DNA of 64,000 nucleotides, taken from NCBI GenBank assembly GCA_003559415.1, contig PWLI01000011.1:3618-67617 (forward strand), given 5' to 3'. This stretch comes from Clostridiales bacterium (GTDB lineage Bacteria; Bacillota; Proteinivoracia; UBA4975; PWLI01). A program made the translations under genes and the position numbers. The notes beneath the pieces were generated by a model. It searched no databases, was not told the origin of the DNA, and saw only the letters and a list, made by a program, of their open reading frames with translations. Numbering within the stretch: position 1 is the first letter of the stretch; each line of letters opens with the position of its first letter. Positions 8,037 through 48,955 of the stretch are shown in pieces.

Positions 8037-8202
8037 TTTAAAACCTCCTGCCAGTATATTTTATATATAAGGAAGTAGCAGTGCTAATAGGGGGTGTAGA
8101 TATGTGGGTAAGTCTGTAAAAGTTCGGACACATATGTGCTTTGCCTATGGAAAACCCTGTTGGCAGCATGTTTTGGTTTTCCACACTGTGCACATATCCA
8201 CA
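8037..8202. promoter_or_regulatory. oriC part 2 (dnaA-dnaN spacer, incC-like): DnaA boxes, trio-like repeats and an AT-rich unwinding element
   Basis: DnaA-box-like 9-mers: aTATCCACA at 8194-8202 abutting the dnaA stop, TTtTCCACA at 8176-8184, and TGTGGGTAA (rc TTACCCACA) at 8103-8111. GTAGCAGTGCTAATAG at 8074-8089 reads as 3-nt TAG/TAA-type DnaA-trios. A pure A/T tract agtatattttatatataa at 8053-8070 sits next to the dnaN start. The order boxes-trios-DUE going from dnaA toward dnaN matches B. subtilis. Confidence 0.6.
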
Positions 8203-9528: not shown

Positions 9529-9871
9529 GGCCTTTCAACCTCCAGCTGTGTATTGGTCTGTGGAAAAAAAGAAGCAATAAAAAAACCACAGAAAGCGCCA
9601 ATATAACCAAAAAAAAGCGGAAAATTAACCACAGGGTCCTTGAAAACGCCGGTTTCCCGGAGGAAAATATCCACAGGGTTATTAACAAAGTGTTGATAAC
9701 TATTGTTTTTTCCCAAAAACAACGGCTTTCATAACCAGTTTAGCAGAATTATCCCCAGCCCGCAACAATAACAATCCACATATCCCCAGGCCCCAAAAAC
9801 AGTGTTTTTCTTGACGAAAAGGGGGAATTAAGCTATAATTTCCTTTAGCGTAAAATAAGGGGGTGGACGGC
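9529..9871. promoter_or_regulatory. oriC part 1 (rpmH-dnaA intergenic): DnaA-box cluster in both orientations plus an A-rich tract
   Basis: Each 9-mer is within one mismatch of TTATCCACA: TGTGGAAAA at 9560-9568 (rc), TTAaCCACA at 9625-9633, aTATCCACA at 9667-9675, TGTTGATAA at 9691-9699 (rc TTATCaACA), TTATCCcCA at 9749-9757, and ATCCACATATCCCCA at 9774-9789. An A-rich run at 9564-9590 is also present. Confidence 0.65.
9811..9839 (+). promoter_or_regulatory. sigma-A promoter of the rpmH-rnpA operon
   Basis: TTGACG at 9811-9816, a 17-nt spacer, then TATAAT at 9834-9839. It lies about 30 nt upstream of the rpmH RBS AAGGGGGTGG. Confidence 0.6.
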
Positions 9872-11983: not shown

Positions 11984-13360
11984 GTGGAGCCTGTGTACGC
12001 AGAAGATACCATAGCCGCGGCGGCAACGGCACCCGGCCCTGGCGGGGTAGGCATAGTCCGCGTCAGCGGAACCCGGGCCCGGGAAGCAACCCAGGCCCTT
12101 TTTGAGTTTTCTGCTCCCCCTGACAACGTTCAGCCACGGAAAATGTACTATGGTGCTTTTTCAGACCAGCAGGGCCGGGAAATTGATTCGGGGTTCTGGG
12201 TTTGGTTTAACCCGCCTGCCACATTTACCGGAGAAGAAGTGGTTGAGCTTCATTGTCATGGTGGCATGTTGATTATCCGCAGAATACTCCAGGCCCTTTA
12301 CGCACAGGGCGTTCGCCCCGCTGAGCGGGGAGAGTTTACCCGCCGGGCCTTTGTAAATGGCAAACTGGACCTTTCCCGGGCAGAGGCGGTGGCAGATTTA
12401 ATTGGAGCCCGCAGCGACAGGGCGCTGGACTTGGCCCGGGCCCAATATGAGGGCTCAATCGCCAACAAGACAGAACAGCTTCGCCAACAAATGACCCAGC
12501 TGCTGGCCAGCCTGGAGGTCACAATTGATTATCCAGAAATGGACCTGGATGAACAACAAAAGGAACGCCTTCTTCAGCAGGCGACACAAGTTGTCGAAGA
12601 ACTGAAGATGTTGGCAGCGACTTACAGCCGCGGGCGCTTGTATCGGGAAGGGCTGTCCACAGTAATACTGGGGCGCCCCAACGTGGGCAAGTCTTCGTTG
12701 CTGAACCTGCTTTCCGGAGAGGACAGGGCCATAGTCACCGACATCCCCGGCACCACCAGGGACGCCCTGGAAGTGGCTGTGAGCATCAGGGGCATACCCC
12801 TTACTTTGATTGACACTGCCGGCATCAGAAGCCCGGAAGGGCTGGTGGAGCAGCTTGGTGTGGACAAGGCCCGCCGCCTGGCGACAGCGGCAGACCTGGT
12901 AATAATTTTGTTTGACGGTTCGTTGCCCCTGTCGGAACAGGACATGGAGCTGTTAAAAATGTCTCCTCCGGCCAAGACACTGTGTGTGATAAACAAAAGC
13001 GATTTGCCCCAACAACTGGATGCAGAAACGTTGCGCAAACATGGGGCAGAAAGATGTTGCAGCATTTCAGTCCTCCGCCAGGAGGGTATAGAGCAGCTGG
13101 AAGAGGGAATTGAAAAAATGTTCGCCCTCTCAGAGGGATTTGACGGACAGGTTGTCATAACAAGCCAGCGGCATTTTGAAACACTGACCCGTGCTATTGC
13201 CCTGTTGGAAGAGGCGGTGGCGGGTTGGAGCACCCTTCCGCTGGACGTGTTGGCGCAACAGGTAAGAGAGGCGTGGCAAGCGCTGGGTGAGATAACCGGC
13301 AAGACGTACACGGAAGATCTTCTGGATGTAATATTTTCTCAGTTTTGCCTGGGCAAATAG
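11984..13360 (+). CDS. mnmE: tRNA modification GTPase MnmE
   Basis: 458 aa. DTIAAAATAPGPGGVGIVRVSG N-domain, G-domain GRPNVGKSSLLN...DIPGTTRD...DTAG, and C-terminal ...CLGK. Confidence 0.95.
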   Translation: MEPVYAEDTIAAAATAPGPGGVGIVRVSGTRAREATQALFEFSAPPDNVQPRKMYYGAFSDQQGREIDSGFWVWFNPPATFTGEEVVELHCHGGMLIIRRILQALYAQGVRPAERGEFTRRAFVNGKLDLSRAEAVADLIGARSDRALDLARAQYEGSIANKTEQLRQQMTQLLASLEVTIDYPEMDLDEQQKERLLQQATQVVEELKMLAATYSRGRLYREGLSTVILGRPNVGKSSLLNLLSGEDRAIVTDIPGTTRDALEVAVSIRGIPLTLIDTAGIRSPEGLVEQLGVDKARRLATAADLVIILFDGSLPLSEQDMELLKMSPPAKTLCVINKSDLPQQLDAETLRKHGAERCCSISVLRQEGIEQLEEGIEKMFALSEGFDGQVVITSQRHFETLTRAIALLEEAVAGWSTLPLDVLAQQVREAWQALGEITGKTYTEDLLDVIFSQFCLGK

Positions 13361-13371
13361 GGGGCGGGCTT

Positions 13372-15228
13372 ATGAAGGAGCAGCTTTATGATGTTATTGT
13401 CATAGGGGCAGGGCATGCCGGGTGTGAGGCGGCGCTGGCATCTGCAAGGATGGGCTGCAGCACACTGTTGCTGACCATGAGTTTGGACAACGTTGCCCTT
13501 ATGCCCTGCAATCCGGCTATTGGCGGCCCTGCCAAGGCCCACTTGGTGTTTGAGATAGATGCCTTGGGTGGAGAAATGGGCAGAAACATCAACCAGTCCA
13601 TGATTCAGGTTCGCATGCTTAACACCAACAAGGGCGCGGCGGTTCGCTCGCTGAGGGCCCAGGCCGACAAAGGTGCTTACCAGCGCCGCATGAAACGTGT
13701 GTTGGAGCAGCAACCGGGGCTTCATCTCAAACAGGCAGTGGTGGAGAAGTTGGACACAAGTCAAACCTCACCACATGTGGTGGAAACCAACCTGGGAACC
13801 CGTTACCGTGGACACAACATTGTGGTCACTTCCGGGACCTACATGAGCGCCAAAATTATAGTGGGTGATGTGGTCTGGCAGGGTGGACCCAATGCCATGA
13901 TGGGCCCTTCCGGACTGTCTCGGTGTCTAACTGATCTGGGGTTTGAGCAGGTGCGCTTCAAAACCGGAACACCTCCCCGGGTAGATGGCAAAACCCTGGA
14001 TTTTTTCCGCATGGAGCCCCAACCGGGGGACGACTGCAAACACAGCTTTTCTTTTTATTCTTCGCCGGTTTTGGACAAACAAGAGCTGTGCTGGCTGACT
14101 CACACCACCGAAGAAACACACAGCATTATCCGCGACAACTTGCACAGGGCTCCCTTGTATACCGGCATGATCCAGGGTGTGGGCCCACGCTACTGCCCTT
14201 CCATAGAGGACAAAGTTGTGCGGTTTGCCGACAAAAACAGGCACCAGCTGTTTTTGGAGCCGGAAGGGCGCTCAACCGATGAATACTATGTCCAGGGAAT
14301 GTCCACCAGCCTGCCGGAGGATGTCCAGGAGCAGTTTCTGCGCAGCATACCTGGAATGGAGAAAGTGGATATAATCCGGCCGGGATATGCAATAGAGTAC
14401 GATGTTGTGGTTCCCACACAGCTAAAACTTACCCTGGAAAGCAAGGCCTGCCCCGGGTTGTTTTTTGCCGGGCAAATCAATGGCACTTCCGGGTACGAAG
14501 AAGCTGCCGCCCAGGGCCTGATGGCGGGCATTAATGCCGCCCGGCGGGTACAGGGCAAACCGCCGGTGGTATTGCCCCGCTCCCAGGCATATATTGGAGT
14601 GCTGTTGGATGACTTGGTGGTCAAGGGACCGGAAGAGCCTTACCGCATGCTGACTTCCCGGGCAGAGTTCCGCCTGTTGCTTCGCCAGGACAATGCCGAC
14701 AAGCGGCTTTCGCCCCTGGGACATGAGTTGGGCTTGTTGCCGGAAGAAGACTTCCAAAGGTATAAAAACAAGCAAGGGGAAGTAGAAGGGCTTGTTTGCT
14801 GGGCGCACGGGCAAAAACTCAAACCAGAACAGGCGAACCAACACCTGGGTGACAGTACATGTCAGCAAGTTTCCGAAACTGTGCTGTTGGCAGACCTTTT
14901 GCGCCGCCCCGGCGTGAGCATGGAAAGTTTCCGTAAAATGTTTGACAAACAGTATGGCGCAACGGCGGTCCAGGCAGCCGAGACGGAAATCAAATACCAG
15001 GGATACATCGAAAAGCAGCAAAAACAGGTGGAACAGATGCAAAAAATGGAGGAAGTCAAGATACCGGAGCAACTTGATTTTTCCCACATTGCCGGCTTGT
15101 CCCGGGAAGGGCGGGATAAGCTCAGCGCCCACCGGCCCCAGACTCTGGGCCAGGCTTCCCGCATTCCCGGAGTCTCTCCCGCCGATGTGTCTTTGCTGTC
15201 CATACACATAAAGGCGGCGAGATCATGA
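13372..15228 (+). CDS. mnmG: tRNA uridine 5-carboxymethylaminomethyl modification enzyme MnmG/GidA
   Basis: MKEQLYDVIVIGAGHAGCEAALA is an FAD-binding Rossmann N-terminus. RBS AAATAGGGGG lies upstream of the ATG at 13372. The ORF-track start at 13345 would overlap the mnmE stop. Confidence 0.95.
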   Translation: MKEQLYDVIVIGAGHAGCEAALASARMGCSTLLLTMSLDNVALMPCNPAIGGPAKAHLVFEIDALGGEMGRNINQSMIQVRMLNTNKGAAVRSLRAQADKGAYQRRMKRVLEQQPGLHLKQAVVEKLDTSQTSPHVVETNLGTRYRGHNIVVTSGTYMSAKIIVGDVVWQGGPNAMMGPSGLSRCLTDLGFEQVRFKTGTPPRVDGKTLDFFRMEPQPGDDCKHSFSFYSSPVLDKQELCWLTHTTEETHSIIRDNLHRAPLYTGMIQGVGPRYCPSIEDKVVRFADKNRHQLFLEPEGRSTDEYYVQGMSTSLPEDVQEQFLRSIPGMEKVDIIRPGYAIEYDVVVPTQLKLTLESKACPGLFFAGQINGTSGYEEAAAQGLMAGINAARRVQGKPPVVLPRSQAYIGVLLDDLVVKGPEEPYRMLTSRAEFRLLLRQDNADKRLSPLGHELGLLPEEDFQRYKNKQGEVEGLVCWAHGQKLKPEQANQHLGDSTCQQVSETVLLADLLRRPGVSMESFRKMFDKQYGATAVQAAETEIKYQGYIEKQQKQVEQMQKMEEVKIPEQLDFSHIAGLSREGRDKLSAHRPQTLGQASRIPGVSPADVSLLSIHIKAARS

Positions 15229-15929
15229 ATGCTGCAAAGATAAGCGAAACCCTTGCTGCCCTTGGGCTGCCGGGTGCAGAGCAGGCAGAGAAAATTGCCA
15301 AATATTTCCATTTAGTGGTGGACTGGAACCGCCGCATCAACCTTACGGCAATCACCGACCCGGAGCAGTTTCTGGTCCGTCATGTTATCGATTGCCTGTG
15401 GTTGGCCAGGGCTGAAACCCCCCGGGGCGCGCTGGCTGATGTGGGCAGCGGCGCAGGCTTTCCCGGCCTGCTGCTGGCGCTGTGCCTGCCCCACCTGCAA
15501 GTGACGATGATTGATGCCACAGAAAAGAGAGTGGGTTTTTTGCGCCACTGCTGCCGTCAGTTGCATATTGATGCCACAGTGATCCACGACAGGGCAGAAA
15601 CGCTGGGGCATTCGGCCGCCAGGGAGAGCTTTGACTGGGTGGTGGCCCGGGCGTTGGCGCCGCTGCCCGTTCTGGCAGAATACTGCTTGCCGCTGACCAG
15701 GGTTGGCGGTGTGTTCGTTGCATACAAGGGGCCGGCAGTTGAACAGGAAGTAAGGCAAGCGACAAATGCCATAGCTCTTTTGGGAGGAAAAGTCCGGGAG
15801 CAACATTGTTATCAGTTGCCCGACGGGAGTGAACGTTCATTGGTTGTTGTTGAAAAACAAACAACAACCCTGGAAAAATTCCCCCGGCGTCCGGGCATGC
15901 CGGCAAGAAGACCCCTTGGCAGCGGCTAG
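15225..15929 (+). CDS. rsmG: 16S rRNA (guanine527-N7)-methyltransferase RsmG/GidB
   Basis: 234 aa. ...WNRRINLTAITDPEQFLVRHVIDCL...DVGSGAGFPGL... are the SAM-methyltransferase motifs. Confidence 0.9.
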   Translation: MNAAKISETLAALGLPGAEQAEKIAKYFHLVVDWNRRINLTAITDPEQFLVRHVIDCLWLARAETPRGALADVGSGAGFPGLLLALCLPHLQVTMIDATEKRVGFLRHCCRQLHIDATVIHDRAETLGHSAARESFDWVVARALAPLPVLAEYCLPLTRVGGVFVAYKGPAVEQEVRQATNAIALLGGKVREQHCYQLPDGSERSLVVVEKQTTTLEKFPRRPGMPARRPLGSG

Positions 15930-16005
15930 GGGTTTTTTTACTGCAGGAAATGACCCAAAGATTGGCGAATACTGTATTACCTTGGAATTGGAAGGAGCTT
16001 CTTGG

Positions 16006-16830
16006 ATGTCTGAAGGTATTGGTAAAAATTTCCCCGGAACACTGCAGGGACAGGGCGAAGTCAGGGACATCCCCTGTGACGAAATTAAACCCAACCCCTT
16101 TCAGCCCCGCCAGGCCTTTGACCAGGCGGCGTTGGAGGAACTGGCACAATCCATCAAAACATATGGTGTGCTGCAGCCGATTATAGCCCGTCCCTGGGGC
16201 ACAGGCTACCAATTGGTGGTGGGAGAGCGTCGGCTTCGGGCTTGCAAAATGTTGGACAGGCAGACAATTCCCGCCTTTGTCAAAGAGATTAACGACTCTG
16301 CCATGGCAGCGATTGCCCTGATTGAAAACTTGCAAAGAGAAAACCTGGACTATTTTGAGGAAGCAGAGGGCTACAGGCGGCTGCTGGAAGAGTTCGGGTT
16401 TACCCAGGAAGCACTGGCACAGCGGCTGGGCAAGAGCCAGTCGACAATTGCCAACAAGCTCAGGTTGCTCAGGCTGCCTGACGAGATAAGGGAGCAGCTG
16501 TCCGCTGCCGGCCTTAGCGAACGTCACGCCCGGGCACTGCTGAGGATTTCCCATGCAGACAACTGCCGTCAGGTGCTGACCAAAATCATCAACATGGGGC
16601 TCAATGTCCGCCAGACGGAAAATCTTATAGAGAATTTGCTGCAAGACAGCCCCCCGGCTGACACGGGAGGAACGCAAAAATTTATAATCAAGGACTTTCG
16701 GGTGGTGCTCAACACCATCGGCCAGGCAGTTGCTGCCATTGAACAAACAGGCCTGCGGCCGACAATGACTCACAGTGAAAACGAAGAGTTTTTTGAAGTA
16801 GTCATTCGGCTGCCCAAAGAAGGGAGATAG
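16006..16830 (+). CDS. noc: Nucleoid occlusion protein Noc (ParB-family paralog)
   Basis: ParB N-domain GVLQPIIARP...GYQLVVGERRLRA followed by an HTH. It is the first of two ParB paralogs after rsmG, as in B. subtilis yyaA/noc. Start chosen at the ATG at 16006 with RBS GGAAGGAG. The ORF track extends it to 15829, which would overlap rsmG. Confidence 0.72.
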   Translation: MSEGIGKNFPGTLQGQGEVRDIPCDEIKPNPFQPRQAFDQAALEELAQSIKTYGVLQPIIARPWGTGYQLVVGERRLRACKMLDRQTIPAFVKEINDSAMAAIALIENLQRENLDYFEEAEGYRRLLEEFGFTQEALAQRLGKSQSTIANKLRLLRLPDEIREQLSAAGLSERHARALLRISHADNCRQVLTKIINMGLNVRQTENLIENLLQDSPPADTGGTQKFIIKDFRVVLNTIGQAVAAIEQTGLRPTMTHSENEEFFEVVIRLPKEGR

Positions 16831-16834
16831 TGAA

Positions 16835-17593
16835 GTGGGGAAAGTAATAGCCATAACCAACCAAAAAGGCGGGGTAGGCAAGACCACGACCGCAATAAAC
16901 CTGGGCGCCAGCCTGGCCCATCTGGGGAAAAAAGTTTTACTGCTGGACATAGACCCCCAGGGCAACACAACCAGCGGGGTGTGGGTTCAAAAGCAAAGCA
17001 TCAAGCGCTGCGTTTATGATGTTTTGGTTTCCGGCTTCTCCCTGGATGCAATAATAATGCCTACAGCAGTTGAGAGGCTTTGGGTGGCTCCTGCTTCCAT
17101 TCAACTGGCTGGTGCCGAGATAGAGTTGGTCCCATCCATGTCCCGTGAAGACAAACTGCGCCAACAGATGGAGCCGGTTCGTGACGATTATGACTACACG
17201 CTGATTGACTGCCCGCCGTCTTTGGGCCTGTTGACAATCAACGCACTGACTGCCGCCGATTCAGTGTTGGTGCCGATTCAGTGTGAGTATTATGCGCTTG
17301 AGGGCCTGAGCCAGCTTATCAACACCGTGAAGCTGGTGCAAAAGCATCTCAACAAAAGCCTAACTTTGCAAGGGGCGTTGCTGACAATGTACGACCCCCG
17401 GACGAACTTGTCGGCCCAGGTTGTTTCAGAAGTAAAGGCCTACTTTGGCGATCAGGTCTACGATACCATCGTTCCCCGAAGTGTCAGGCTGAGCGAGGCG
17501 CCCAGCTATGGACAGACGATACTTGATTATGACCCCCGGTCCAAGGGTGCTGAAGTGTATATGAAGTTGGCTGAGGAGGTGTTGGCACAGTGA
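16835..17593 (+). CDS. soj: Chromosome partitioning ATPase ParA/Soj (GTG start)
   Basis: 252 aa. Deviant Walker A KGGVGKTTTAINLGA. Confidence 0.92.
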   Translation: MGKVIAITNQKGGVGKTTTAINLGASLAHLGKKVLLLDIDPQGNTTSGVWVQKQSIKRCVYDVLVSGFSLDAIIMPTAVERLWVAPASIQLAGAEIELVPSMSREDKLRQQMEPVRDDYDYTLIDCPPSLGLLTINALTAADSVLVPIQCEYYALEGLSQLINTVKLVQKHLNKSLTLQGALLTMYDPRTNLSAQVVSEVKAYFGDQVYDTIVPRSVRLSEAPSYGQTILDYDPRSKGAEVYMKLAEEVLAQ

Positions 17594-18414
17594 GCGCCAC
17601 CAGAAGGGGCTTGGGCAGAGGTTTGGGCGCCCTGATCCCCACCGGAGAAGAGCAACAGGACTCGGAGCAGATTGCTGTTGAGGAAATAAAGTCCAACAAC
17701 TTTCAACCCAGAAAAAACTTTGACCCCACTGCCCTGGAGGAACTTGCCCAGTCCATCAAGGAACACGGGGTGCTGCAACCAGTGGTGGTTCGCCCCGTTC
17801 CCGGCGGGTACCAGCTGGTGGTTGGAGAGCGGCGCATGCGGGCTGCAAAGATGGTGGGGATGGAGACCATCCCGGCCGTTGTCATGGAGCTCACCGATCG
17901 GCAAATGGCAGAAATTGCCCTGATTGAGAACCTGCAGCGGGAAGACTTAAACCCCATGGAAGAGGCAGTGGCGTACAGCCGCCTGCTGGAAGATTTTGAC
18001 CTTACCCAGGATGCCCTGGCGCTGCGCCTGGGCAAAAGCCGCCCGGCAATTGCCAATACGTTGCGGCTGCTCAGCCTTGATCCCCAAGTCCAGCAGATGA
18101 TTGAGGATGGCAAGCTGTCAGCGGGCCATGGGCGGACGCTGTTGTCGTTGCCACAGGAAGAGCAGGCAGCGGCGGCCCGGGAAATGTTGAACACGGGCCT
18201 TACCGTTCGCAAGGCAGAACAGAAGCACGGAAAAAAAAGAAAAGCCGCCCCCGCGCCCTTGAGCCCCAACCTGGCCGAGGTGCAGCAGCAGCTGATGGAG
18301 GCGCTGGGCACAAAAGTGGCGATTGAAGACAAGGGCCAACGGGGCAAGATAGTGATAGACTACTACTCGCCCGACGACGCCAACAGAATTGTCAAGCGCA
18401 TCCTGGACAGATAA
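17590..18414 (+). CDS. spo0J: Chromosome partitioning protein ParB/Spo0J (GTG start)
   Basis: 274 aa. GVLQPVVVRPV..GYQLVVGERRMRAA ParB box, an HTH, and a C-terminal dimerisation domain. Confidence 0.9.
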   Translation: MSATRRGLGRGLGALIPTGEEQQDSEQIAVEEIKSNNFQPRKNFDPTALEELAQSIKEHGVLQPVVVRPVPGGYQLVVGERRMRAAKMVGMETIPAVVMELTDRQMAEIALIENLQREDLNPMEEAVAYSRLLEDFDLTQDALALRLGKSRPAIANTLRLLSLDPQVQQMIEDGKLSAGHGRTLLSLPQEEQAAAAREMLNTGLTVRKAEQKHGKKRKAAPAPLSPNLAEVQQQLMEALGTKVAIEDKGQRGKIVIDYYSPDDANRIVKRILDR

Positions 18415-18421
18415 CATGGAC

Positions 18422-18437
18422 TGTTTCACATGAAACA
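18422..18437. other. parS-like site (one mismatch to consensus)
   Basis: TGTTTCACaTGAAACA lies inside the 18-bp perfect palindrome CTGTTTCACATGAAACAG. The parS consensus is TGTTNCACGTGAAACA. Confidence 0.6.
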
Positions 18438-18444
18438 GCTGTTG

Positions 18445-18460
18445 TGTTTCACGTGAAACA
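18445..18460. other. parS site (perfect consensus)
   Basis: TGTTTCACGTGAAACA is a 16-bp perfect palindrome. It sits 7 nt after the first site and 30 nt after the spo0J stop. Confidence 0.8.
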
Positions 18461-18473
18461 AAGGAGGCAGCAG

Positions 18474-19598
18474 ATGATATACCTGGACAATGCCGCCACC
18501 AGCTGGCCCAAGCCGGAGGAGGTTTATTCCCGGGCTGACAAAGTGCTCCGAAGCGCAGCAAACCCCGGCCGCGGGGGCCATCGCTTTTCCCGCCAGTCGG
18601 CAGAGGCCCTTTTGCTGGCCCGGGAGGCGATGGCCTCATTCTTTTCCGTGCCAGACTCCCGGCAAGTTATATTTACATCGGGCGCCACCCATGGGCTTAA
18701 CATGGTTTTGTTGGGGCTGCCCGGGGTGAAGAGGATAATTTCTACAGGGTCCGAGCACAACTCGATCTGGCGCCCCTTGGAGTTTTTGCGTCAGCACCGG
18801 GACGTAGAAGTGGAATATGTAGAGTCAGGCGAAAACCTGGAAGATCTGAAAAAGTCTCTGGCCCGGCCTGCAGACCTGGTGGTGGTTACCCACGCTTCCA
18901 ATGTGACAGGGCATATTTACCCGCTGGAAGAAATAGTCTCACAGGCCCACGCTGCCGGCGCCCTGGTGCTGGCCGACGTCTCCCAGTCAGCAGGGGTGCT
19001 GCCGCTGGACTTTGTGGGGATTGGCCTTGATTTCGCCTCTTTCCCCGGGCACAAAGGGTTGTTGGGCCCCCCGGGCAGCGGTGGGATGTACGTCAGGCCG
19101 GGACTGGAGTTGACACCTCTGATGCTGGGAGGTACGGGAGCCAACTCCCATGATCCAGGCCCTCCGCCGGCCTTGCCCGACCGTTACGAAAGCGGGACTG
19201 TCAACCTGTCTGGCATTGCCGGCATGGCTGCCGGGGCAGAATTTTTACAGAACTATGGGCTGGACAAGGTGCTCTCCCATGAGCTTGACTTGCGCCGGCA
19301 AGCGGCCCAGGGGTTGTGTGGCCTGGGGGCACAGGTTTATGTCCCCGATGGCAAGACGGTGGGAGTGCTTTCCTTTAACCTGCCGGGCATTGACTCAGGT
19401 GATGTGGCAGGGATACTGGACGAGGTCTATGGCATTGCCGTCCGTGGCGGGCTTCATTGTTCGCCCCGTTCCCATGATGCCCTGGGAACATCGCATCAGG
19501 GCACAGTGCGCATCAGTCCGGGCCTTTTCAACTCTGCCCGGGATATTGACCAGTTGCTGACAGCGGTAGAAGAGATTATTGGCCAGGGTAGGAGGTAG
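18474..19598 (+). CDS. Class-V aminotransferase / cysteine desulfurase-family PLP enzyme
   Basis: MIYLDNAATSWPKPEEV..., PLP-lysine context ...SFPGHKGLLGPPGSGGMYVR. RBS AAAGGAGG just upstream of the ATG at 18474. The ORF track begins at a GTG inside parS. Confidence 0.85.
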   Translation: MIYLDNAATSWPKPEEVYSRADKVLRSAANPGRGGHRFSRQSAEALLLAREAMASFFSVPDSRQVIFTSGATHGLNMVLLGLPGVKRIISTGSEHNSIWRPLEFLRQHRDVEVEYVESGENLEDLKKSLARPADLVVVTHASNVTGHIYPLEEIVSQAHAAGALVLADVSQSAGVLPLDFVGIGLDFASFPGHKGLLGPPGSGGMYVRPGLELTPLMLGGTGANSHDPGPPPALPDRYESGTVNLSGIAGMAAGAEFLQNYGLDKVLSHELDLRRQAAQGLCGLGAQVYVPDGKTVGVLSFNLPGIDSGDVAGILDEVYGIAVRGGLHCSPRSHDALGTSHQGTVRISPGLFNSARDIDQLLTAVEEIIGQGRR

Positions 19599-23459: not shown

Positions 23460-23993
23460 ATGGATCACGACAAGCGTTATGAAAAAGCCAATCGCCTTTT
23501 CTACCATAATCAATTTCGAGATGCCTTGGATATTTTATTGGAGATTGTTGAAGAACAGCCTGACCATGCCCTGGCGCTGAACAAAATCGGGGTCATCCAT
23601 ATACATTTCCAGCAGCGTCAGGAGGCAGAAGATTATTTTCGCCGGGCGCTGGATGCTGACCCTGAATGTGGCGCTGCCATGGGTAATTTGGCCAGCCTGT
23701 TGGTTGAGCGGGGCGAAGAGGAAAAGGCAGAGGTAATGCTGGAAAAGGCAGCCAAACTGGATCCGGAAAACCCCTATATCCTAAATAACCTGGCCGCTGT
23801 GCACAAAAAACGTGGAGACACCGAGGCCTACCTGTCATTATATAAAAAGTCCCAGCGATTACTTAGGGACAAGTTGAAGCAAGACACACGGGCAGATTTT
23901 CACAGCCTGCGAGGCCGTTCGGGATGTGGCGGGCCCGCCATGCTGGCAATGCTGTTGCTGTTGGTGGTGTTGATGGCGTTATGGCTGACATAA
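23460..23993 (+). CDS. TPR-repeat protein with C-terminal TM helix
   Basis: Three TPR-like units (ALALNKIGVIH..., AAMGNLASLL..., ILNNLAAVH...) and an MLAMLLLLVVLMALWL tail. Confidence 0.65.
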   Translation: MDHDKRYEKANRLFYHNQFRDALDILLEIVEEQPDHALALNKIGVIHIHFQQRQEAEDYFRRALDADPECGAAMGNLASLLVERGEEEKAEVMLEKAAKLDPENPYILNNLAAVHKKRGDTEAYLSLYKKSQRLLRDKLKQDTRADFHSLRGRSGCGGPAMLAMLLLLVVLMALWLT

Positions 23994-24340
23994 AAACTAC
24001 GCTTAAAACCGCAGTTTCTTTTCTGTTGCCCTTGTTGGGTCTGGTGGCAGCCGCATTTATTGTTTCCCGGGGGCTGGCGGCCCTGTCTGTCAACTGGCCA
24101 GTGGCTGCGGTGCTGGTTTTCGTGGCCACAAAAATTCTGACAGATATTGTCGCGCATTTGTTGACGCGCTCCCGAGATGTGTTTTATGTGGATGAGTACT
24201 TAAAAGAAACACTGATTTACACGTTGGCAGTGCTGGTTGCCATTGGCGCCATTCATCTGGCCAGGGTGCACATAGGCGGAGATGTCTGGGTGCCCCTGCT
24301 GGCAGCCGTCATGGCTCTGACTTGGCGGCACAGCCGCTGA
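23981..24340 (+). CDS. Small integral membrane protein (3 TM), unknown function
   Basis: MADIKTTLKTAVSFLLPLLGLVAAAFIV... The ORF-track start at 23924 overlaps the TPR gene, so the ATG at 23981 is preferred. Confidence 0.45.
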   Translation: MADIKTTLKTAVSFLLPLLGLVAAAFIVSRGLAALSVNWPVAAVLVFVATKILTDIVAHLLTRSRDVFYVDEYLKETLIYTLAVLVAIGAIHLARVHIGGDVWVPLLAAVMALTWRHSR

Positions 24341-24341
24341 T

Positions 24342-24355
24342 ATTTCCCGGGAAAT
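24342..24355. other. Noc-binding site (NBS) consensus palindrome
   Basis: ATTTCCCGGGAAAT is the exact 14-bp B. subtilis NBS consensus. It lies 2 nt after the stop of the preceding membrane-protein gene. Confidence 0.55.
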
Positions 24356-28572: not shown

Positions 28573-28648
28573 GGGCCATTAGCTCAGTTGGCAGAGCACC
28601 TGACTTTTAATCAGGGTGTCCCAGGTTCGAATCCTGGATGGCTCACCA
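28573..28648 (+). tRNA. tRNA-Lys (anticodon TTT)
   Basis: GGGCCATTAGCTCAGTTGGCAGAGCA..., anticodon loop cTTTTaa, T-arm GGTTCGAATCC, 3' CCA encoded. Confidence 0.85.
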
Positions 28649-28649
28649 T

Positions 28650-28724
28650 GGCCCCTTGGTCAAGTGGTTAAGACACCGGCCTTTCAAGCCGGTAACAGGG
28701 GTTCGAGTCCCCTAGGGGTCACCA
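28650..28724 (+). tRNA. tRNA-Glu (anticodon TTC)
   Basis: GGCCCCTTGGTCAAGTGGTTAAGACACCGGCCTTTCAAGCCGG..., 3' CCA. Confidence 0.85.
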
Positions 28725-28728
28725 TATT

Positions 28729-28805
28729 GGAGCTGTGGTGTAGAGGCCTAACATGCCTGCCTGTCACGCAGGAGATCGCGGGTTCGAATCCCGTCAGCTC
28801 CGCCA
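28729..28805 (+). tRNA. tRNA-Asp (anticodon GTC)
   Basis: Acceptor GGAGCTG/CAGCTCC, anticodon stem-loop CCTGC-cTGTCAc-GCAGG, T-arm GGTTCGAATCC, CCA. Confidence 0.8.
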
Positions 28806-28807
28806 GT

Positions 28808-28883
28808 GCCGCGGTAGCTCAGTTGGTAGAGCAGTGGACTGAAAATCCACGTGTCGGCAGTTCAATTCTGCCCTGCGGCACCA
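28808..28883 (+). tRNA. tRNA-Phe (anticodon GAA)
   Basis: GCCGCGGTAGCTCAGTTGGTAGAGCA, anticodon loop cTGAAaa, CCA. Confidence 0.85.
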
Positions 28884-28891
28884 TTTTTTTT

Positions 28892-28967
28892 GCCGGCGTA
28901 GCTCAATTGGCAGAGCAGCTGAATCGTAATCAGCAGGTTGCGGGTTCGAGTCCCATCGCCGGCTCCA
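28892..28967 (+). tRNA. tRNA-Thr (anticodon CGT)
   Basis: GCCGGCGTAGCTCAATTGGCAGAGCA, anticodon stem GCTGA/TCAGC with loop aTCGTaa, CCA. Confidence 0.8.
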
Positions 28968-45049: not shown

Positions 45050-46288
45050 TTGGCTGATTACAAAGACATACCCCTGTTTGAATCGGTGACAAAGGAACAG
45101 TGGCAAGACTGGCATTGGCAACTGCAAAACCGCATAAGCGATGTTGCCACGCTCAAAAAGGTAATCAACCTTACCAGCCAGGAAGAAGAGGGGATTGAGC
45201 GCTGTTTGCAGTCGTTGAGAATGGCCGTTACCCCTTACTATGCCAGCCTGATGGATAGGGACGACCCCAACTGCCCCATAAGGCGGCAGGCTGTTCCTGT
45301 CAGCAATGAGTTGAACATGTCTGCTACCGATATGGACGATCCCTTGGCAGAGGATACCGACTCGCCGGTGCCCGGCCTGACCCACCGATACCCCGACAGG
45401 GTGCTGTTGCTGGTAACTGACCAGTGTTCCATGTATTGCCGCCACTGCACACGCAGAAGGATGGCGGGAGCCACCGACAAAGCCCTGCCGGGAGAGCAGG
45501 TGGATGGAGCGATAGAATATATCCGCCGCACCCCGGCCATAAGGGATGTGCTGATTTCCGGTGGCGACGGGTTGCTTATTTCAGATGCTCACCTGGAAAA
45601 AATAATCCAGAAGCTGCGCAGCATCCCCCATGTTGATGTTATTCGCATTGGCACCCGGGTGCCGGTGGTGATGCCCCAGCGCATTACCCGGGAACTGGTA
45701 ACGATGTTGCAACGCTACCACCCTGTTTGGCTGAACACCCACTTTAACCATCCCCGGGAGGTTACCCCTGAAGCCTGTAAGGCGTTGGAAATGCTGGCCA
45801 ATGCGGGCATACCCCTGGGCAACCAGTCGGTGCTGTTGCGGGGTGTAAATGACTGCGTCGGCGTGATGAAGGCGCTGGTGCACAAGCTGGTGCAAAACCG
45901 GGTGCGCCCATACTACATTTACCAGTGTGACCTCTCCCGGGGGATAGAGCATTTTCGCACACCAGTGGCCAAGGGGATTGAAATTATTGAAGGCCTGCGG
46001 GGCCACACTTCTGGCTATGCAGTGCCCACCTATGTCGTAGATGCCCCCGGCGGAGGGGGCAAAATACCGGTGATGCCCCAATACCTGATCTCTCATTCTC
46101 CCCAGAGGGTAGTGTTGCGTAACTTTGAGGGCGTCATAGCGGCTTACACCCAGCCCTCAGAATACAGCGACCCGGATTGCAGTCAGTGTGAATATTGTCA
46201 GCAATCAATTGGTGTCAGCAGTGTTTTGCAAGGCAGTCGGCCCAGCCTTGAACCGGAGGGTTTGGACCGGCAGAGACGCCGCAAATGA
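45050..46288 (+). CDS. kamA: L-lysine 2,3-aminomutase (radical SAM)
   Basis: CSMYCRHCTRRR is the CxxxCxxC cluster. PLP-binding and the C-terminal Zn-Cys motif CSQCEYC match the KamA architecture. Confidence 0.9.
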   Translation: MADYKDIPLFESVTKEQWQDWHWQLQNRISDVATLKKVINLTSQEEEGIERCLQSLRMAVTPYYASLMDRDDPNCPIRRQAVPVSNELNMSATDMDDPLAEDTDSPVPGLTHRYPDRVLLLVTDQCSMYCRHCTRRRMAGATDKALPGEQVDGAIEYIRRTPAIRDVLISGGDGLLISDAHLEKIIQKLRSIPHVDVIRIGTRVPVVMPQRITRELVTMLQRYHPVWLNTHFNHPREVTPEACKALEMLANAGIPLGNQSVLLRGVNDCVGVMKALVHKLVQNRVRPYYIYQCDLSRGIEHFRTPVAKGIEIIEGLRGHTSGYAVPTYVVDAPGGGGKIPVMPQYLISHSPQRVVLRNFEGVIAAYTQPSEYSDPDCSQCEYCQQSIGVSSVLQGSRPSLEPEGLDRQRRRK

Positions 46289-47307: not shown

Positions 47308-48955
47308 AATAGAAAGGTTTATTGGCAAACCATGCCAACAGCAAATTGGACTTGAATGGGTGCTGGAGCACTTGACCCCCTTAAGTTGCTACGGCCGCCT
47401 GCGGCAGGAGAGAATGCCGGTTTATTTGCCTGGGTGTGAGCACCAACTGACCAGGGAGTGGGAGCGGATTGGCAGCCTGCTGGACGTCTGGCAATCTTAT
47501 CCCGAAAAGGTCCAGGCTGTTGAGGCGGAAATACATGGCCTCAGGGACATACGCGGTATAGTTCGCAAGGCCTGTGCTCATCTGACCCTGGAAGAACATG
47601 AGCTCTTTGACCTTAAGCAATGGTTGCAGCAGGTTGACCGCCTTTCTCAGACCCTTGTTACTTTGCCTTCTTTTTTGCCCCGACGTTTTTCGCTGTACTG
47701 CTGCCCCCGTTTGTTGGCATCCTTGAGCATGGAGGGTGACAGCGGATTCTATCTGGCAGACTGCTATGACCCCAAACTTGCCAGCCTGCGGCAATTGCAG
47801 CGGCAAAAGTTTTCTGTGCTGTCGGAAATAAAAGAAAAGCGGCAGGCTTGCATTACCCGGGAAACGGGCCTGGAGTTCAATTACCAGGGCTGTCTCCGGG
47901 TGGGCAAACATCAAACAGAATTACTGGACAAGTTGCATAATCGCAGCGACCTTCTGACAGTTGCAGAAACATATACTGAAGTGGAATTTACCCTGCGTAA
48001 AACTGCAGAAATGTTGGAGCTGTCCCGCCAGATAGCGGATCTTGAACAGGAAATCCAACAGCAGGAATATATAATCCGTCAGGTGTTGACAGAGCAAGTT
48101 GCCCGGCACAGCCGTTGGCTGCTGGCGTCGTGCAATCGTATCGGTGCCATTGATTTGCTCTTTGCCAAGGGGCGCCTGGCCCGGGAACTGGGCGGTTGCG
48201 TGCCCACCCTTGTTTCTGAAAACAAGTTGCAGATTTCAGCACTGGTTCACCCCCTTGTTGAAAACCAGCTTGCCAGCCAGGGATTGGTGTTCCAGCCATT
48301 GGACATTAATGTTGTTGGCAAAAGAGTTACCCTGATTACCGGGGCCAACATGGGCGGCAAGTCGGTGGCCCTCAAATCAATTGGGTTGGCGGTGGCCATG
48401 GCCCAAAGGGGCTTGTTGGTCCCTGCCCGCCGGATGGAGTTTTCGTTGCGCAGCTTTGTGTATTACTCTCAACAGGAAGAAAACCCGCGGCAGGGCCTCA
48501 GCACCTTCGGCGCAGAAATACACAGCCTCGCCCAGATGTTGCCCCGCCACCACCAGCCCGGCTTGTACCTGCTGGATGAGCCCGCCAGGGGCACCAACCC
48601 CCATGAGGGAGCAGGATTGGTGGCAGGGATAATTAACTGGCTGGTCTCGGGAAACAGCCTGGCAATTATCGCCACCCACCTGTCCGGCCTGACTGAGGGT
48701 GCAGCTGTGGATCACCTGCAGGTTGCCGGGTTGAGCAATGTTGAACCGGATCAGTTAAACCAGGCCCTGGCCGGGGGGAGAAAGTCTTTGCAACAGCTGA
48801 TGGACTACACCCTGGTCCCCTCTGGCGGGGATGTTCCCCGGGATGCTCTCAAGGTGGCTGCTTTTTTGGGGCTGGACCGGGAGATAATAAACTATGCACA
48901 TCGTAAATTGGGATTACCAGCTCAGGAGGTGGTTGACGATGAAATTGAATCTTGA
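47300..48955 (+). CDS. MutS-domain-V-like ATPase (MutS paralog without a mismatch-binding domain) in the kam cluster
   Basis: The C-terminal half has the MutS ABC-ATPase motifs ITGANMGGKSVALKSIG, ...STFGAEIHSLAQML..., LYLLDEPARGTNPHEG, and ATHL. The N-terminal half is helical and not MutS I-IV-like. Confidence 0.7.
   Translation: MTEIERFIGKPCQQQIGLEWVLEHLTPLSCYGRLRQERMPVYLPGCEHQLTREWERIGSLLDVWQSYPEKVQAVEAEIHGLRDIRGIVRKACAHLTLEEHELFDLKQWLQQVDRLSQTLVTLPSFLPRRFSLYCCPRLLASLSMEGDSGFYLADCYDPKLASLRQLQRQKFSVLSEIKEKRQACITRETGLEFNYQGCLRVGKHQTELLDKLHNRSDLLTVAETYTEVEFTLRKTAEMLELSRQIADLEQEIQQQEYIIRQVLTEQVARHSRWLLASCNRIGAIDLLFAKGRLARELGGCVPTLVSENKLQISALVHPLVENQLASQGLVFQPLDINVVGKRVTLITGANMGGKSVALKSIGLAVAMAQRGLLVPARRMEFSLRSFVYYSQQEENPRQGLSTFGAEIHSLAQMLPRHHQPGLYLLDEPARGTNPHEGAGLVAGIINWLVSGNSLAIIATHLSGLTEGAAVDHLQVAGLSNVEPDQLNQALAGGRKSLQQLMDYTLVPSGGDVPRDALKVAAFLGLDREIINYAHRKLGLPAQEVVDDEIES

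Follow-up and report, generated by a model that had tools for sequence, protein, structure and literature searches.

A tandem pair of predicted origin-proximal parS sites directly behind parB in an uncultured Bacillota bacterium

ParB nucleates at parS, where a CTP-dependent clamp closes, slides and builds the partition complex. Whether a protein of this family is specific for parS or for the Noc-binding site (NBS) is set by the residues at positions 173, 179, 184 and 201, in Caulobacter numbering (Jalal et al., PMC7383237). Chromosomal parS sites can be densely packed: the two strongest sites of Caulobacter crescentus, parS sites 3 and 4, lie on one 260-bp segment, and Myxococcus xanthus carries 22 parS sites in ~3.1 kb. 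What ParB does to the expression of genes that adjoin parS has also been studied in several species. The clearest positive case is P. aeruginosa, in which ParB-parS binding represses the promoters beside the intergenic sites parS3 and parS4 (PMC5521831). In S. pneumoniae and V. cholerae, expression effects next to parS are few and selective (review PMC7022226), and in B. subtilis the loss of Spo0J leaves the expression of genes next to 10 parS sites unaltered, according to the account that the same review gives of Breier and Grossman 2007.

We analysed a 64-kb stretch of DNA (hereafter, the window) from an uncultured Bacillota bacterium in which two such sites lie in tandem directly behind parB. 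The gap between the parB stop codon (TAA, 18412-18414) and the ATG of the next gene (18474) is 59 nt long and is filled by two 16-bp palindromes, so that positions 18415-18473 read CATGGAC-TGTTTCACATGAAACA-GCTGTTG-TGTTTCACGTGAAACA-AAGGAGGCAGCAG, then ATG. The first of them, parS1, begins 7 nt past the stop codon and is a perfect palindrome apart from its central CA/TG step; another 7 nt separate it from parS2, and the two sites are 23 bp apart from start to start, a pair that a repeat finder reports as well. Both match TGTTNCACGTGAAACA, the 16-bp palindrome of chromosomal parS, one of them completely and the other with a single mismatch (Table 1). A pattern search of the whole window returned two parS-like matches, both located in the gap between parB and the aminotransferase gene that follows it, and a search with TGTTTCACGTGAAACA detected no further parS in the window at up to three mismatches. 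By chance, 0.05 matches with up to two mismatches are expected per 64 kb, and two hits were obtained in 0 of 100 shuffles. An earlier note on this DNA had described two palindromes 7 nt apart behind spo0J, and its coordinates, mismatch counts and gap were all confirmed. Its assignment of these palindromes as parS, with the cognate spo0J/parB as the adjacent gene, likewise fits the sequence, the specificity residues of ParB, the origin-proximal position and the conservation in relatives. We consider it highly probable from these sequence features that the two palindromes constitute an origin-proximal chromosomal centromere (parS), that is, functional ParB loading sites.

The ParB encoded immediately upstream is of the parS-recognising type. 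Its segment LGKSRPAIANTLRLLSL...LSAGHGR provides R, T, S and G at positions 173, 179, 184 and 201, respectively, and, as in a cognate ParB, R173 and G201 are combined with a GERRxRA motif, here the CTP-binding motif GERRMRA. The protein also carries the N-terminal LGRGLGALIP, the segment ENLQREDL and a ParB_C dimerisation domain, and it aligns to the structures of B. subtilis Spo0J, Thermus Spo0J and Caulobacter ParB with E-values from 5e-58 to 2.5e-49. That this ParB might read a different sequence, a possibility raised along with the parS assignment, is at odds with these residues, which are of the parS type as far as sequence can tell.

In contrast, the ParB paralog encoded upstream of soj has Q, K, R and R at the four specificity positions (residue 184 is R, where K is usual). 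It scores 324.7 bits against the NCBIfam model nucleoid_noc, for which the cut-off is 315, and is, judged by its sequence, a bona fide Noc. The mechanically called noc ORF, with its start at GTG 15829 (333 aa), over-extends the gene, which is 274 aa long in the deposited call. A perfect Noc-binding-site core, ATTTCCCGGGAAAT, is found at 24342-24355, right behind the stop codon of the ORF at 23924-24340; taken with its flanks (TATTTCCCGGGAAATT), it agrees at 15 of 16 positions with what we take to be the B. subtilis NBS consensus. Copies of the core with two mismatches lie at 45683-45696 and 47852-47865, which makes three hits in all versus 0.32 expected.

The genes around the parS pair are arranged in the order of a classic Bacillota origin region (Table 1). 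The window contains 30 matches to DnaA-box-like 9-mers, compared with 11.3 expected, and the clusters that flank dnaA suggest a Bacillota-type bipartite oriC. The GC skew switches sign at 8-10 kb. On the basis of dnaA and dnaN, the DnaA-box clusters and this switch, the parS pair is placed ~9 kb from oriC, which is the origin-proximal location of a chromosomal parS. Five tRNA genes (Lys-UUU, Glu-UUC, Asp-GUC, Phe-GAA and Thr-CGU) are encoded on the + strand at 28573-28967, ~10 kb past the parS pair.

Table 1. Features of the origin region and of the gap between parB and the aminotransferase gene (window coordinates)
Feature	Coordinates	Strand	Remarks
gyrA, gyrB, recF-like, dnaN, dnaA	8203-9528 (dnaA)	-	Pfam/NCBIfam scans
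DnaA-box-like 9-mer cluster	8103-8202		between dnaA and dnaN
DnaA-box-like 9-mer cluster	9559-9757		upstream of dnaA
yidC, jag, mnmE, mnmG	13345-15228 (mnmG)	+	Pfam/NCBIfam scans
rsmG	15225-15929	+	Pfam/NCBIfam scans
noc	16006-16830	+	274 aa; ParB paralog; probable first operon gene
soj/parA	16835-17593	+	252 aa; 4-nt overlap with parB start
parB/spo0J	17590-18414	+	274 aa; Pfam ParB_N, HTH_ParB, ParB_C
parS1	18422-18437		TGTTTCACaTGAAACA; 1 mismatch to consensus, A for G at centre
parS2	18445-18460		TGTTTCACGTGAAACA; 0 mismatches to consensus parS
Shine-Dalgarno (SD) GGAGG of aminotransferase gene	18463-18467	+	6 nt upstream of ATG
Class V aminotransferase, cysteine desulfurase family	18474-19598	+	374 aa; Pfam Aminotran_5, 3e-74
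DUF554, Ala_racemase_N/D-Ser-dehydratase-like protein, DUF4446, M23 peptidase			past the aminotransferase gene

The best ParB identity to the window was 58% among GTDB species genomes (L001) and 49% among JGI metagenomes, and a protein search added nine contigs (clade P0002-P0016, ParB 59-78% identical), which gave ten related loci with ParB proteins 58-78% identical to that of the window. In all ten, the gene order is mnmG-rsmG-noc-soj-parB-aminotransferase, and DUF554 and a racemase-fold gene usually come next. The gap between parB and the aminotransferase gene holds two parS sites in seven of these relatives and one in the other three (L167, L170 and L171), and no parS was found outside this gap in the 5.7-7.3 kb covered per locus. 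The RBS-proximal position is occupied by a parS in every relative, and the position equivalent to parS1 in seven. With the window included, the RBS-proximal site ends 12-18 nt ahead of the start codon in all 11 clade loci. Since the start-to-start spacing differs among the eight tandem loci (23, 23, 25, 27, 28, 28, 28 and 32 bp, window included), the pair is best described as two independent sites and not as a composite of fixed geometry. The same 23-32 bp range led us to reject a constant helical phasing between the sites.

An alignment of the clade loci (A1) shows hardly any change within the 16-mers. Variation is found in the spacer that separates them, which differs in length (7-16 nt) and in sequence, in the bases that follow the stop codon, and at synonymous positions of the two flanking genes. 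Because the sites are conserved across orthologous loci and their flanks are not, selection acts on the parS DNA sites themselves, and the 16-mers are under purifying selection. In one relative (L165, 3887-4237), the aminotransferase call is only 116 aa long and is directly followed by DUF554, and both perfect parS sites are kept upstream. This shortening reflects a deletion or else an error of assembly; if it is not an artefact, the conservation of parS may not need an intact downstream gene.

The frequency of such arrangements was surveyed in 160 loci of diverse bacteria in which parB was located by tblastn, with ParB identities to the query of 41-58%, and the 156 loci with enough downstream sequence were scanned for parS at up to one mismatch. 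Because ParB peptide words were used to find these loci, and many of them are near-duplicates from gut Oscillospiraceae, the percentages are descriptive and not phylogenetically independent: parS was present anywhere in the locus in 119 of 156 (76%), within 100 nt past the parB stop in 41 (26%), and as a pair within 60 bp of each other in 36 (23%), nearly always ~1.8 kb before the parB stop and upstream of parA. The two adjacent sites of the window had been regarded as an unusual density, a view that these 36 loci and the far larger M. xanthus cluster do not support. Two parS sites after the parB stop were seen in a single survey locus, the nearest relative of the window (L001), and the 23-bp spacing of the window pair is the tightest in the sample. 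In other lineages, mostly gut Oscillospiraceae (L030, L096-L129 and others), a single consensus parS follows the parB stop by 2-4 nt and precedes by 13-17 nt the start of another gene, one that encodes a product beginning with MLDIKF; in many gut Oscillospiraceae contigs the latter distance is 14-17 nt. The gut Oscillospiraceae loci with this gene usually have, in addition, two parS sites in tandem ahead of parA. A parS between the parB stop and the RBS of the next gene is therefore a feature that recurs across lineages. Tandem parS sites are common, as are parS sites set against the next RBS, and only their combination is clade-specific.

The start of the downstream gene was then reconsidered. 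The earlier note had put the second parS 5 nt before the RBS of this gene; parS2 does adjoin the RBS, at a distance of 2 nt, and the purine-rich block at the SD is conserved among relatives (alignment A1). It had also placed a GTG start codon inside parS, but the first nucleotide of this GTG (18444-18446) still precedes parS2, and only the other 2 nt lie within it. As the start of the aminotransferase gene, GTG 18444 was rejected because of where the RBS lies, where the deposited call begins and how the N-terminus is conserved. Because an SD sequence lies 6 nt upstream of ATG 18474, the deposited call (contig PXAF01000060.1, MAG GCA_003565975.1) runs from this ATG for 374 aa and the N-terminus MIYLDNAAT is kept in all relatives, ATG 18474 is the true start, and for annotation the gene start moves there from GTG 18444. 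The product scores 363.9 bits against TIGR01977 (NCBIfam), slightly below the cut-off of 377.

Apart from the two parS sites and the SD sequence, the gap contains nothing else. The scans and the alignment of relatives revealed no conserved promoter or terminator between parB and the aminotransferase gene, for which reason the spacer is best read as the intercistronic gap of one operon; this is more likely than the 5' UTR that had been proposed. A promoter for the downstream gene in the 3' end of parB was rejected, the sole match (TTGTCA-17-TAACAT, 18389-18417) fitting 9 of 12 positions and not being conserved in relatives. At the other end of the operon, a strong terminator-like hairpin that carries a T7 tail extends over the rsmG end (15913-15932, + strand), suggesting that noc-soj-parB begins a transcription unit separate from mnmG-rsmG. 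Given this hairpin and the tight packing of noc, soj and parB (a 4-nt gap between the first two, and an overlap of the same length between the last two), the likeliest unit runs from noc through soj and parB to the aminotransferase gene (csd) and onward, and noc-soj-parB-csd-DUF554 is most likely a single transcription unit.

With the pair acting as a centromere, ParB dimers encoded immediately upstream would use their helix-turn-helix domain to contact each 16-bp site, and would bind CTP. The dimers would then close as clamps, slide onto flanking DNA and build a partition complex, on which Soj/ParA and SMC would act. The presence of two independent parS sites could provide redundancy or a higher loading rate. 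ParB binding, CTP-dependent loading and sliding, and a role in segregation are what we infer here from established ParB biology. No other non-coding DNA separates parB from the next gene, which is why the parS sites in the gap abut the RBS of that gene.

Since the published precedents are mixed, an effect of ParB on the expression of the downstream gene, which the earlier note had expected, is possible by analogy, but it is not to be expected by default. It is unlikely, in our estimation, that parS serves in addition as an operator or roadblock, such that ParB bound 2 nt upstream of the SD, or piled-up clamps, would lower csd transcription or alter its translation and couple expression to ParB occupancy. 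The constant 12-18 nt between the RBS-proximal parS and the start codon in 11 of 11 clade loci would suit an operator, but a minimal intercistronic gap simply explains this tight juxtaposition, and other lineages have parS 13-17 nt before the start of an unrelated gene. Similarly, the repression of promoters adjoining parS3 and parS4 by P. aeruginosa ParB and the local effects in V. cholerae and S. pneumoniae offer precedents, whereas B. subtilis without Spo0J shows unchanged expression beside its parS sites. ParB-controlled operators of the P. aeruginosa parS3/4 type or of plasmid KorB/ParB silencing have parS at a functional promoter; in the window, by contrast, no conserved promoter overlaps parS, the 9/12 match at 18389-18417 being absent from relatives. 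Moreover, L165 retains both parS sites upstream of a truncated aminotransferase call. Still less probable is that the clade-fixed parS 12-18 nt before the csd start, mostly with a second site 23-32 bp upstream, is a selected coupling device, with ParB bound at the centromere, or its clamps passing along the DNA, holding back read-through or translation of csd-DUF554-aldolase. If true, this would link csd-DUF554-aldolase expression to the segregation state of the chromosome.

A role of the palindromes as RNA appears very improbable. In that case, parS1:parS2 pairing or self-folding would create an intercistronic stem-loop that stabilises the parB segment or tunes translation of the next cistron. 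A 15-bp parS1:parS2 hairpin that leaves the RBS unpaired is predicted (-17.8 kcal/mol, z = -2.3), but two palindromic copies of one sequence necessarily fold in this way, so the hairpin arises automatically. Furthermore, the universal parS consensus is kept at all 16 positions, the prospective loop included, neither compensatory changes nor covariation are seen, and the three single-site relatives cannot form the long hairpin. Covariance models detected no Rfam match in 18200-18700 at E <= 1. The remaining explanations are that the matches are due to chance, that an unrelated regulator with CACGTG specificity binds them, or that they terminate the parB operon as an intrinsic terminator. These have a negligible probability and appear effectively refuted by conservation and consensus identity, given that 0.05 matches are expected per window by chance and the sites are conserved in relatives. 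A terminator after parB was rejected: the parS1 hairpin listed by a terminator scan (18421-18438) is weak, with three GC pairs, and lacks the conserved GC-rich stem and U tract of an intrinsic terminator. Its T-containing tail coincides with the left arm of parS2, relatives have no T-rich sequence there, and the next gene begins 13 nt past parS2 with its own SD.

Read as ParB loading sites, the pair marks the predicted centromere of an uncultured Bacillota lineage, and its importance lies mainly in annotation. To have parS right behind the gene of its binding protein is a common, well-understood arrangement, and the clade-specific tandem placement after parB and the tight 23-bp spacing are minor variations. 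No new question on ParABS biology is raised by the locus, the spacing and the clade-specific tandem being mildly interesting.

The locus can be set beside several described systems. As in P. aeruginosa, where parS3 and parS4 are ParB-dependent operators of PA0011 and PA0013, an intergenic parS lies near the start of a neighbouring gene; promoter activity of the P. aeruginosa regions has been confirmed experimentally, whereas no conserved promoter was found in the gap of the window. Several strong, functionally redundant parS sites are likewise clustered near parAB and oriC in C. crescentus, M. xanthus and P. aeruginosa (parS1-4), but the window has two sites only, 23 bp apart and confined to an intercistronic gap. 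The consensus parS pairs of Oscillospiraceae and other Bacillota, 30-59 bp apart at the par operon, resemble the tandem of the window, although they lie upstream of parA and the pair of the window clade lies after parB. In B. subtilis, the 359-degree parS is inside spo0J, and the Bacillus cereus-group loci of our sample have parS 195 nt before the parB stop, whereas the window has its two sites in tandem just past that stop. Nevertheless, the window shares with the Spo0J parS system of B. subtilis (consensus TGTTNCACGTGAAACA) the same 16-bp sequence, the same ParB recognition residues and the same origin-proximal noc-soj-spo0J neighbourhood.
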